A stretch of 64,000 nucleotides of DNA. Origin: Rhizaria sp. SCN 62-66. Its lineage: Eukaryota. The stretch spans positions 248,001 to 312,000 of the forward strand of contig MEDY01000004.1 in the NCBI GenBank assembly GCA_001724265.1. The letters run 5' to 3'. Positions 22,291 through 55,603 of this stretch are shown piece after piece. A program made the translations under genes and the position numbers. The notes below the pieces were generated by a model. That model ran no database searches and was not told where the DNA came from. It saw only the letters and a list, made by a program, of their open reading frames with translations. The first letter of the stretch is position 1; each line of letters begins with the position of its first letter.

Positions 22291-25200
22291 ATGGACAGCA
22301 ACCTGAGGGGGGCGAATGCGCCCCCGCTGTTCCCGGCGCCCGCGCCTGACGGCAACCGACCTTCACAACCGCTTGCACCGCCAGGCCGCGCAGGGTCGAG
22401 TCAGTCGATGCGCGCTGGGCCGCCATACGCCCCAACGCCTTCGTCCTCACCATCTCAGTCAACTCATACAACGCTCATGCCACAGGGCACTTCACTGCGG
22501 TCCCTCCAGAGCTTGCAGGCTGGCTCCTCCATCCCTTCGGCCCTGGGCGGCTACGTGCCCGACTTTTCCGCGCACGGCGCCTCTGAGGCGTCCGACGACT
22601 CGCTATCCTTCCAGGCACATCTGCAGCACGAGTCGCTGCCAGTCTCCCCGACCAGCCGCGGCGTCTTCGCCCACCTGCACCACTCGGCGCGCCCCGGGGG
22701 GCTGACCTCCGTCGTCATCACCGCCGGCGCCGCCGCAGGGGCCGCTGACCGCGCTACTACACGTTCTGCGATGCGTCAAATCTCTGCGCGCGCGCCGCCC
22801 GGCTTTTTCGACCTGCCCTCGCTGCCGCACACTGCGACCACTGCCGCCGCCACGGCTGGCGCAAGCAATGGCAAGGACGCTCTCGCGTGCCGCAGCTACG
22901 ACGACCACCGGAACGTGCCCAGCAACGCGGCGGACAGCAGCAACACGAACCCTGCGGAGTTTATGCTGAGCCACGCGTCGTTGGAGGCCGCGCTCGAGGC
23001 CGATGCGCTCTGCATCGATGGCTCCGCAGCCGCAGCCGCAGCCGCCGCGGCCCCCGCGCACGCCCCCGCGTGCCCCATAGACTTCCCGCGCCCCGCGATG
23101 ACTGCCACCAGCTCCAGCAGCACTGGCACAGGCGCGGGGGCAGGCGTGGGGCATGATGAGGGCGCTGGCGCCAGTGAGGCTGACGATGTGTTCGTCATCA
23201 CACCGCGGTCGCCGATCGTCACCGCGACGTCGGCGGCGGCCGCGCACAACACGGGTGCGTCAGATTACGCGCGGTTCGGCCAGTATGAGCAGTACGGCCG
23301 CGGACCTGGACATCATGGCAACTCCCGCACCAACAGTGGCGACCCTCCCAGCGACGACAGTCTCGCGCTGCCCTTCGACCACCACGTGCACGGCCACATG
23401 CACGTACATGGCCACGGTGCGGGCATGATGTCGTCGTTCCCCGACGACTCGGACGACCACGTTGAGTCGCAATCACGCCCGCAGTCGCACTCTCGGTCTC
23501 AAGTGCGGCTCGCGACCAGCGTCGGGACAGACCCCGATCTGGACCAGCAGCAGTTCGTCGCGACCGCCAACGCCGAGGCCGCCAACAGGGCCATTGCGGC
23601 CGACGCATCCAAGGCGCCCACGCCCGCGTCCGACTCGGCCGGCGCCGCGGGCGCCGCGGCCGGCGAGGCCGCGGGTGGTGAGACCGCCGCACCCAACCTG
23701 GCCCCGGCCGCGCCCGCGTTCGCGGCCGTCGCGCCCGCGCGCGTGGTGTTCGCGGCGCCCAACGGCCACGCGCCCGACGCCGCGATCCTCAAGCACACGT
23801 GCCGCGCGCACGCGCACTGCGCGCCGGGTCATAGACACGAGTCGGTGCGCGGCAGCGAGATGGCCGCGTTGGCCTCGCTCGACGCCGCCGCCGCCACCGT
23901 CGCCGCCACGGCCGCCGTTGAGGACGCCGCCGCAGCCTAGACCGGCTCTGGCGCCGGCGCTCTCGCCGGCAGCTCGGCCACCAGCGCGGCGGTCGCGGCG
24001 GCCGCACAGCTCGGCGCCGGCCCCGGCGGACTCCCGCTGTCACGCGCACTGCCCGTGGCCGAGGGCGACGACCCCAACTGTCTGGCTTGCGCGTTCGCGC
24101 TTGATTGCTCGATGTTGCCCGCCGCAGGCGCCACAGCCGGCTCGGTCACGCTCGCCACGCTGCGCGCCGCCGTCGCCCATGCCGAGGCTGCCACGGGCGC
24201 CGCGGCCGGGCACCTCATCATCCCGGGCGTCGTGCCTTTGCTCCGCGTCCACAACGCTGCGCACGCGCATGACGCTGCGGTGACCCACCGCGCCGCGATG
24301 CAGGACACAACGTCCGCTGCGGGCGCTGGCGAGGGCTCCGCAGTGACTCTGGAGCTGGTCCCGCCCACGGCGGACCCAGTTCACACTGCGCTGGGCCCCG
24401 CGGACCGCTGGGAGTTCGAGGCCGAGGAGCGCGCCGCGGCCGCGGCCTCGGGCCTTGCCGCCGCAGCCGCCGCAGCCGCCACTGCGGTTGCCGCGGGCAC
24501 CGCTTGCGCGCCCGCTCAGGCGCACACGCACGCACTGGCGATGGCGGCGGTGGCCGCGGGGGCGGGCGGGTCGCCCTCGCACGGCGCCTGGCCGGCCGAG
24601 GGTACGCTCAGCAACAGTAACAGCTACAGCTACTACGGCTCCGCCTCGGCCAGCGCCGCGCTCAGCGCCGCGCCCGCCGGTGCCACGGTCCAGACGCGCG
24701 CGCGCGCCGGCAGCGCCGCCGGCTCTACGCCCTACGCCGGGCCCGCGAGCGCCAGCGCCAGCGGCCTGTGCGGCCCCGCGAGCGGCACTGCGCTAGCGGC
24801 GCTGTATGGCAACAACCGCGCTCACCACACGTACTCAGCGGTGGGGTTCCGCCAGCTGCAGCAGCAGCAACAGCAGCACCTGCAGCAGCTCCAGTTTCAG
24901 CAACAGCAGCAGCAGCACCAACACGAGGCCGACTGCGCGGGCGACGACGGGCTCGTGGTGCTGCCGTACGCGCCGACCCCGCCCTACGGCGCGATCGCGC
25001 TCTCGAGCGGCGGGCCCGTGGCATCGGCCGCCACGGGCGCGCTCTCGGCGCTGCACGACCGCTCGCCCTCGGTCACGCCCAGCCTCCACGGTTACGGCCC
25101 CGCGCCGGCGCCCGCGGGCGCGCATCACCACCTTGCGCTCGCGCACTCGCACTCGGCGCTTGCGGGGGCCTCCAGCGCCAGCTCCGCGGCGGGTAACGCC

Positions 25201-55500: not shown

Positions 55501-55603
55501 TGTTTCGGGGTTGTTGCGTGGGAGATGGCGCGACGCTTGGAGCAGCAACGTCGATGTGTGACGCGACGGGGGAGACCCGACGTCCAGAGGAATCGTCTCT
55601 CAT
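49593..55603 (-). CDS. PIGO: GPI ethanolamine phosphate transferase 3 (PIG-O/Gpi13), 4 exons (55603-55435, 55335-50307, 50186-49874, 49724-49593), about 1880 aa reading through TAG 54427-54425
   Basis: Motifs [140 protein letters not shown] and RRHLMVWAVFAPKF. Three introns with GTTCGT, GTACGT and GTAAGT donors restore the frame. Stop is TAA. Confidence 0.93.
49725..49873 (-). other. Spliceosomal intron 3 (PIG-O)
   Basis: CAC|GTAAGT...TTTTCAG|CGG gives LH-RRHLMVW. Confidence 0.88.
50187..50306 (-). other. Spliceosomal intron 2 (PIG-O)
   Basis: GT|GTACGT...AAATAG|C, AT-rich, phase 2. Confidence 0.8.
55336..55434 (-). other. Spliceosomal intron 1 (PIG-O), 99 nt, in frame and stop-free
   Basis: ACAG|GTTCGT...CCATAG|GC. 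Removal gives the conserved [11 protein letters not shown]. Confidence 0.8.

Follow-up and report, generated by a model that had tools for sequence, protein, structure and literature searches.

Probable decoding of UAG as an amino acid, with UAA and UGA kept as stops, in the nuclear genome of an uncultured eukaryote

The window, that is, the whole 64-kb stretch of DNA that was analysed, is nuclear DNA of an uncultured eukaryote that has few introns and occurs in bioreactor and wastewater samples; runs X1-X3 contained 84-100% of the words sampled from it. Genes for TOR, an exportin, Vps23 and PIG-O all lie on one long contig, where the coding sequence has 60-78% GC and the spliceosomal introns are AT-rich (Table 1). 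These introns are 131-148 nt long, contain 33-34% GC and have a GTACG donor. The TOR product carries mTOR_dom, FAT, FRB, PI3_PI4_kinase and FATC domains, of which FATC reaches the last residue, and since its homologues align from no earlier than about their residue 469, the gene continues upstream of the window. Gene D matched no Pfam family and is without homologues; it keeps a GC3 of about 0.88 in a single frame over its full length.

Table 1. Genes, gene ends and in-frame TAG codons of the window
Feature	Coordinates	Strand	Remarks
Possible fifth in-frame TAG	2..4	+	immediately precedes the window's first TOR codon; single base upstream
TOR kinase gene, 5' part beyond window	5..11881	+	3958 codons, no in-frame stop, TAA end
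TAA end, TOR	11879..11881	+	GC 0.64 to 0.29
TAA end, small membrane-protein gene	12823..12825	+	GC drop
TAA end, gene B	14580..14582	-	GC drop
Exportin-like gene C	end 21676	+	three exons, two AT-rich introns
TGA end, exportin-like gene C	21674..21676	+	GC drop
Gene D	22291..33273	+	3660-codon low-complexity (Ala-rich) ORF, two in-frame TAGs, TAA end
TAG 1 of gene D	23938..23940	+	GC3 0.90 upstream, 0.84 downstream; 1269 codons to next stop
TAG 2 of gene D	27748..27750	+	1840 codons to next stop
TAA end, gene D	33271..33273	+	GC drop
TAA end, gene F	35453..35455	-	GC drop
TGA end, gene G	39515..39517	+	GC drop
Vps23/TSG101 (ESCRT-I) gene	40047..42026	+	Pro/Gly/Tyr-rich N-terminal extension, UEV domain, Vps23 core domain; TGA end
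In-frame TAG, UEV domain of Vps23	40524..40526	+	first residue of first beta strand, after two N-terminal helices; 499 codons open
TGA end, Vps23	42024..42026	+	GC drop
TAA end, gene I (2294 codons)	49348..49350	+	GC drop
PIG-O/GPI13 (GPI ethanolamine-phosphate transferase 3) gene	49593..55603	-	two introns near 3' end; TAA end
TAA end, PIG-O	49593..49595	-	last exon with the family's conserved C-terminal motif
In-frame TAG of PIG-O	54425..54427	-	variable loop between two conserved halves of catalytic domain; 1379 codons open
TGA end, protein kinase gene K	60350..60352	+	GC drop
TGA end, UFD1-like gene L	63351..63353	+	GC drop

The 12 gene ends were found as the original prediction had listed them, seven TAA, five TGA and no TAG, and the drop in GC that it described follows all 12. 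Downstream of the terminators GC was 0.29-0.49 and GC3 0.28-0.60, and the next stop was reached within 2-80 codons. That PIG-O truly ends at 49593 is shown by its last exon, which has the C-terminal motif conserved in this family. Supposing TAG to be the usual end of 20-35% of the genes, a share that is assumed and not taken from this genome, its absence from 12 ends would have a probability of about 0.07-0.006.

Four TAG codons had been predicted to interrupt long coding frames, two in gene D and one each in Vps23 and PIG-O. All four were present, and at each of them (4/4) the same frame continues with its coding composition unchanged, as was claimed. The 150 nt 3' of the TAGs showed a GC of 0.61-0.81 and a GC3 of 0.72-0.96, and the frames stay open for 499 to 1840 codons. 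Calculated from the off-frame stop density, the chance of an open run of at least 499 codons after a stop is about 3e-5. The coding frame of the 14 coding segments contained four TAG, no TAA and no TGA in about 17,865 codons, a number that is approximate since some stop-to-stop leaders are counted in. The two non-coding frames of these segments held 102 TAG, 133 TAA and 496 TGA, a stop density of about 2% per codon. Use of the codon is thus as sparing as had been described, four in about 17,865 or about 0.02%. The two TAGs of gene D are taken as coding positions on the basis of frame and GC3; a comparison of gene D with itself by BLAST for internal repeats pairing a TAG with a sense codon gave no off-diagonal match.

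The interruptions could be sequencing or assembly errors, or else mark pseudogenes or strain-specific nonsense alleles. The observation that all of them are TAG stands (four TAG, no TAA or TGA), but as an argument by itself it is weak: given the codon usage, TAG would result from 62% of nonsense substitutions arising at random, and four TAGs out of four would not be unusual on such an origin (p about 0.15). Against it, no frameshift, TAA or TGA was found in the approximately 17,865 codons, and both the GC3 bias and the conserved residues are intact on either side of the TAGs.

To this were added contigs of other runs, which were compared with positions 22300-42200 and so covered three of the TAG sites (23938, 27748 and 40524). 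All three were unchanged. A contig of X3, from a different study, is identical over 23687-24686 and keeps the TAG at 23938; the TAG at 27748 is present in an X3 contig (27261-28481) and in an X5 contig (27703-27964); and the TAG at 40524 is present, unspliced, in an X5 contig (40389-40790). Since X5 and X7 both have a variant nearby, at 40426, they represent another strain that keeps the TAG. Errors or private nonsense alleles are not expected to recur in several runs and studies and in a strain whose nearby allele differs, and it is because of these independent contigs, not because all interruptions are TAG, that such an origin is put aside as extremely unlikely.

RNA evidence was obtained for one of the four sites. 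X7 has a poly(A) RNA contig (40389-40666) that reads TAG at 40524-40526 and is unspliced there, although it is an assembled contig with a depth of about 3, in which rare variants are lost. At this site, therefore, the RNA contig shows neither CAG or TGG nor splicing, the outcomes named beforehand as contrary to a sense codon. The same contig bears on A-to-I editing of the mRNA, by which UAG would become UIG and be read as UGG (Trp). In certain filamentous fungi UAG is edited in this manner in transcripts of the sexual stage, and such editing would leave exclusively TAG interruptions in the genome; the RNA contigs are also of low depth and concern one site. On the other hand, the X7 contig has the unedited TAG, Trp was not found among the homologues at either of the two alignment columns described below (0/26 and 0/114), the genes hit are housekeeping and not stage-specific genes, and editing would leave the missing TAG terminators unexplained. 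Editing is accordingly considered very unlikely.

The TAG of Vps23 interrupts the conserved UEV domain of a single-copy housekeeping protein. In 22 of the 50 non-self HMMER matches the best aligned stretch spans the TAG, and nearly invariant residues flank it both upstream (Y28, D37) and downstream (L50). In an AlphaFold model (mean pLDDT 80, with 76-91 for the blocks upstream of the TAG) two helices are predicted to precede the TAG and the first strand to start at it. This model, in which the TAG is residue 49, superimposed over its residues 13-165 on the whole UEV domain of TSG101 with a Z of 19.0 and an rmsd of 1.8 over 141 of 142 residues.

PIG-O, likewise a single-copy housekeeping protein, is interrupted in its conserved catalytic domain. 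An alignment of 14 sequences showed invariant blocks on either side of the TAG; the closest non-self match was 38% identical by BLAST and 49% identical in the alignment. The TAG itself falls within an inserted stretch of 135 nt that most homologues lack. An insertion about the size of the introns of this genome raises the question whether the TAGs lie in short in-frame introns or are the true ends of adjacent genes in the same frame, the more so as two of them are in gene D, which has no homologues. Composition and splice sites both argue against it. The verified introns have 33-34% GC and the GTACG donor, whereas the 135 nt around the TAGs have 65-82% GC with coding GC3; there is no donor-like splice site in the surroundings of the Vps23 TAG; and any frame-preserving GT..AG excision at the PIG-O TAG would delete the conserved GDDTW block. 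Other homologues of PIG-O also have insertions in the same loop, and the X7 RNA contig is unspliced at 40524. As for gene ends, an AT-rich spacer marks each of the real gene boundaries and none occurs at the TAGs. Short in-frame introns were therefore rejected on composition and splice sites, and this explanation as a whole is highly improbable.

A TAG that is translated might also be a leaky stop of the standard code, passed with low to moderate efficiency by near-cognate tRNAs, as in an ambiguous intermediate. The codon is used very little (four in about 17,865), and C is the next base at two of the four TAGs. Among eukaryotic readthrough contexts a stop with C in that position is the leakiest. 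No tRNA gene, and no other Rfam family, was detected in the 64-kb window by ARAGORN and Rfam, and hence no suppressor tRNA within it. But three of about 12 genes would need readthrough, including the core genes Vps23 and PIG-O, which are hit inside essential domains. Comparison of the sequences following the four TAGs revealed no common readthrough motif, in agreement with the original prediction, and the downstream RNA structures were not unusually stable at any of the four (z-scores 0.18, 1.64, -0.26 and 0.53). Moreover, the absence of TAG from all 12 gene ends is not expected of a functional stop. Since the use of the codon is far below that in published UAG-only codes, inefficient readthrough of a partly functional stop keeps a small share of probability; overall it is unlikely.

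The tests of frame, domain, intron, other runs and terminators agree within the window in supporting the prediction that UAG is a sense codon and that UAA and UGA are stops. The sample is one 64-kb window with four or five TAG codons and 12 terminators. On this basis UAG is very probably decoded as sense, and it is likely that this genome has a code in which UAG specifies an amino acid and termination is by UAA and UGA. UAG would then be no efficient terminator: ribosomes would insert an amino acid, and UAA or UGA would end the genes.

Two alignment columns are informative as to the amino acid. At the TAG of the UEV domain 26 homologues have H (8), T (7), N (3), D (2), S (2) and one each of Q, Y, A and G, with no Leu. 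The second column belongs to the TAG at positions 2-4, which is possibly a fifth sense codon or possibly the last three bases of an intron. For this candidate site 114 TOR homologues have E (66), Q (10), G (9), S (8), N (5), H (4), D (3), K (3), A (2) and others (4), with Leu in one. A polar residue, Glu or Gln, thus appears to fit the two columns somewhat better than Leu or Trp, which lends slight support to the suggestion that a polar residue rather than Leu is inserted. As to mechanism, a dedicated tRNA with the anticodon CUA would read UAG and not UAA, and recognition of UAG by eRF1 would have been lost or weakened, as has been proposed for the other UAG-only codes; the window does not encode eRF1.

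Nuclear codes that give UAG and UAA different meanings are reported from just a few lineages (PMC5304391, PMC11687900). In Iotanema spirale (Fornicata) UAG is Gln and the stops are UAA and UGA (PMC5304391). As in that organism, UAG alone is probably reassigned here and UAA is still the dominant terminator, and the two columns agree with a polar residue. The difference is one of quantity: UAG is frequent in I. spirale and its meaning was derived from many conserved positions, whereas four or five codons were found here. The rhizarian exLh (Sainouroidea) reads UAG as Leu and has as stops UAA (56) and UGA (15) in 71 genes; those genes contain 384 in-frame UAGs, mostly at conserved Leu positions, and its relatives are free-living or coprophilic protists (PMC5304391). 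The present window resembles exLh in that the interruptions are exclusively UAG and the terminators exclusively UAA or UGA, and differs from it in that UAG makes up about 0.02% of the codons and Leu is found in 0/26 and 1/114 homologues at the two columns.

Further cases are described in PMC11687900, where UAG is Leu or Gln in phyllopharyngean ciliates (with tRNA-CUA genes in two genomes), Gln in Protocruzia tuzeti and Ser in Scotinosphaera, and for UAG-only codes a suppressor tRNA with the anticodon CUA, unable to read UAA, is proposed. An uncultured ciliate is reported (PMC10553269) to read UAA as Lys and UAG as Glu. As in the UAG codes of ciliates and Scotinosphaera, UAG evolves here independently of UAA. 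In the organism studied here the TOR, exportin, Vps23 and PIG-O genes share one long contig, coding GC is 60-78% and spliceosomal introns are rich in AT. Ciliate genomes differ in these respects.

The codes in which both UAA and UAG are Gln, listed in two papers (PMC5304391, PMC6394959) for Amoeboaphelidium, diplomonads, oxymonads, some green algae and many ciliates, share with the present one a change from stop to sense in a nuclear genome, as do the ambiguous codes of Condylostoma, Blastocrithidia and Amoebophrya, in which all three stops are reported to serve as sense. Amoeboaphelidium was rejected as a UAG-only match, as UAR is Gln in those sources. A code of the UAR = Gln type (NCBI table 6) was rejected for the window because TAA ends 7 of 12 genes and does not occur in frame, and a code with all three stops as sense because neither TAA nor TGA occurs in frame among about 17,865 codons and TGA ends 5 of 12 genes. 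The kind of code is already known and rare, and the present organism is probably an added case.

The affiliation of the organism was sought through several of its proteins. The TOR kinase region was 57-63% identical to TORs of fungi, algae and plants, the groups compared, and two metagenomic TORs, compared over the full length, proved no more closely related. A word-based search with the UEV region matched only the fragment from the window itself and no close relative, an Atlas search with the UFD1-like protein gave scores all below 0.9, and a metagenome contig collection did not contain the organism when scanned with P0001, a fragment of Vps23, and with the initial 500 residues of TOR.

It may be, and we put this forward tentatively, that the reassignment is independent, previously unreported and at an early stage, possibly to Glu, in an undescribed eukaryotic lineage without close relative in the searched collections. 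The suggestion of an early stage is based on the loss of TAG from the gene ends together with its presence in only about 0.02% of coding codons. Such sparse use is compatible with a reassignment that is recent or still costly.

The proteins of this organism are split or truncated by standard gene callers, and the database entries P0001 (Vps23) and P0002 (PIG-O) are such fragments; this eukaryote, common in wastewater, is consequently annotated in a systematically wrong way in metagenomes. Each further independent UAG-only case probes how repeatable the route is by which a CUA suppressor tRNA is combined with a weakened eRF1. What is distinctive here is a very GC-rich coding sequence with an extremely sparse new sense codon, which could show an early stage of reassignment. 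If so, the genome would offer a natural snapshot of a disputed step, between the 'unassigned codon / codon capture' and the 'ambiguous intermediate' schemes, and, being GC-rich, would exclude AT pressure as the driver.

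The window belongs to a eukaryotic nuclear contig with genes on both strands. Coding regions have 60-78% GC and a GC3 around 0.7-0.9, and intergenic regions and introns have 33-47% GC, a contrast so sharp that introns and spacers can be seen by eye. The window sequence was present in bioreactor, wastewater and activated-sludge runs of 7 studies, including a poly(A) metatranscriptome; the metagenome contig collection yielded no sequence of this organism, and the protein collections that were searched contained no close relative.

Genes identified in the window
Gene	Position	Strand	Remarks
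TOR kinase	5-11881		partial
Exportin-like gene	16928-21676		two introns
Gene D	22291-33273		low-complexity, 3660 codons
Vps23/TSG101	40047-42026		
Gene I			2294 codons
PIG-O/GPI13	55603-49593	minus	
Protein kinase gene			
UFD1-like gene	60678-63353		

TOR is greatly enlarged, with at least 3958 residues within the window compared with about 2300-2600 in most homologues, and has low-complexity insertions, including a Gln-rich stretch behind the kinase domain; the metagenomic TOR proteins P0147 and P0127 (4215 and 4646 residues) are also large and are not closer relatives. In the UFD1-like protein (891 residues) a long extension comes after the two N-terminal subdomains of UFD1. The protein also has a weak XAF1-type zinc finger match under the Pfam cut-off. 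Its nearest Atlas clusters are mostly giant-virus proteins, with scores below 0.9, and are a lead only.

In-frame TAGs were found where the original prediction had placed them, at 23938 and 27748 (gene D), 40524 (Vps23) and 54427-54425 on the minus strand (PIG-O), and all 12 gene ends it had named are TAA (7) or TGA (5). The PIG-O end at 49593 is genuine, since the last exon carries the conserved C-terminal motif of the family. When 14 coding segments (about 17,865 codons) were laid out, the coding frame contained four TAG and no TAA or TGA, and the remaining two frames of the same segments contained 731 stops. Over the 150 nt downstream, GC was 0.61-0.81 for the four TAGs and dropped to 0.29-0.49 after every one of the 12 terminators, as predicted; the corresponding GC3 values were 0.72-0.96 and 0.28-0.60. 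The next in-frame stop lay 1269, 1840, 499 and 1379 codons beyond the TAGs, compared with 2-80 codons beyond the terminators. With stops at about 2% of off-frame codons, the probability that 499 codons in a row stay open is about 3e-5, confirming that the frames past the TAGs are open far beyond chance. Because TAA ends 7 genes and TGA 5, and neither occurs in frame, codes in which UAA or UGA is reassigned as well are excluded.

With regard to errors, 62% of random nonsense substitutions would produce TAG under this codon usage; therefore the argument that all interruptions are TAG, correct as a count (4 of 4), is not significant alone (p about 0.15). However, three of the TAGs were unchanged in contigs from other sequencing runs, those at 23938 and 27748 in run X3 (another study) and those at 27748 and 40524 in run X5. 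The runs differ by strain variants at 40010, at 40426 and elsewhere within 36800-40000. A T>G change at 40426, in a second codon position, is common to X5 and the poly(A) RNA run X7, indicating that another strain retains the TAG. In run X4 about 1% of positions differ, and a 4-base insertion follows 40010, ahead of the start codon of Vps23.

Location of the TAGs in introns disagrees with their surroundings, since the 135 nt around them have 65-82% GC with coding periodicity, whereas the two verified introns (18710-18840 and 20301-20449; 131-148 nt, GTACG donor) have 33-34% GC between exons of 60-85% GC. The Vps23 TAG has no donor-like site for a frame-preserving excision, the candidate PIG-O excisions would remove a conserved block, and an X7 contig (40389-40666) runs colinear with the genomic sequence and has the TAG. 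X7 depth in the intergenic bins of 33588-34915 was 0-0.13, compared with about 6 in DNA runs, which fits an RNA origin. Editing of UAG to UGG in the mRNA is opposed by the same contig, a low-depth one covering one site, which is unedited, and by the lack of Trp in the UEV and TOR alignment columns. As predicted, no common readthrough motif was found downstream of the TAGs, and no structure downstream of the four was unusually stable (z-scores -0.26 to 1.64).

The Vps23 TAG was analyzed with a 190-residue UEV query (exhaustive HMMER), which gave 50 non-self matches, the best aligned stretch crossing the TAG in 22. In an alignment of 26 homologues the nearly invariant Y28 and D37 lie upstream of the TAG and L50 directly downstream. 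An AlphaFold model of the UEV, built on the homologue alignment and so not independent of it, had a mean pLDDT of 80 (76-91 for the blocks upstream of the TAG); two helices precede the TAG and the first strand begins at it. The best match of the model was the human TSG101 UEV (4zny_A; Z 19.0, rmsd 1.8, 141/142 residues), superposed as a complete domain (model residues 13-165), and Z was 14-16 for the yeast Vps23 UEV. A start at the first ATG past the TAG would lose both helices and the first strand. Ahead of the UEV, 40047-40400 encodes an extension rich in Pro, Gly, Tyr and Gln (about 110 residues) plus a poly-Ser run; in the 26 aligned homologues the domain mostly begins within the first 20 residues.

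Alignment of PIG-O with 13 homologues placed its TAG in a variable loop that carries insertions in some of the other homologues too. On either side of the TAG are invariant blocks belonging to the alkaline-phosphatase-like catalytic domain. Gene D lacks both homologues and a Pfam family, and its two TAGs are supported by the unbroken frame, GC3 and the absence of an AT-rich spacer. Its product, of about 3660 residues, is Ala/Ser/Gly/Gln-rich, with a GC3 of about 0.88 held in one frame; BLAST detected no internal repeat, and contigs of the RNA run cover the gene.

A fifth in-frame TAG, at window positions 2-4, immediately precedes the first TOR residue. TOR extends upstream, its first window residue aligning at about residue 469 or later in homologues. 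This TAG could be an intron end rather than a codon, the two being indistinguishable because a single base lies upstream in the window. If it is a codon, its column in 114 homologues contains E 66, Q 10, G 9, S 8, N 5, H 4, D 3, K 3, A 2 and one each of T, R, M and L. The UEV column (26 homologues) contains H 8, T 7, N 3, D 2, S 2 and one each of Q, Y, A and G. The proposal of a polar residue over Leu stood in part: Glu or Gln is a better fit than Leu or Trp, although two columns cannot decide.

UAG lies inside translated domains, is kept in mRNA at one site and ends no gene in the window. It is thus likely that UAG is decoded here as an amino acid while UAA and UGA terminate; the main rival is a leaky-stop intermediate. 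Published accounts describe UAG-only codes in Iotanema spirale (Gln), the rhizarian exLh (Leu), Scotinosphaera (Ser), Protocruzia (Gln) and phyllopharyngean ciliates (Leu or Gln), and one ciliate with UAA as Lys and UAG as Glu; the signature of the UAG-only reassignments so described is the same as here. A full-text literature search returned no report of a UAG-only code in a GC-rich wastewater eukaryote. By analogy with the codes described in PMC5304391 and PMC11687900, a CUA-anticodon tRNA would decode UAG and not UAA, and eRF1 would lack efficient UAG recognition.

The organism may belong to a lineage already known for such a code. In-frame UAG makes up about 0.02% of codons here, in contrast to the 384 in-frame UAGs across 71 genes reported for exLh (PMC5304391), and this very low use suggests that the reassignment is recent or that the codon is decoded inefficiently. 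The public gene calls P0001 (a 498-residue Vps23 piece that begins past the TAG) and P0002 (a 392-residue PIG-O piece) are fragments cut at TAGs, and standard-code annotation therefore mis-calls the genes of this organism.
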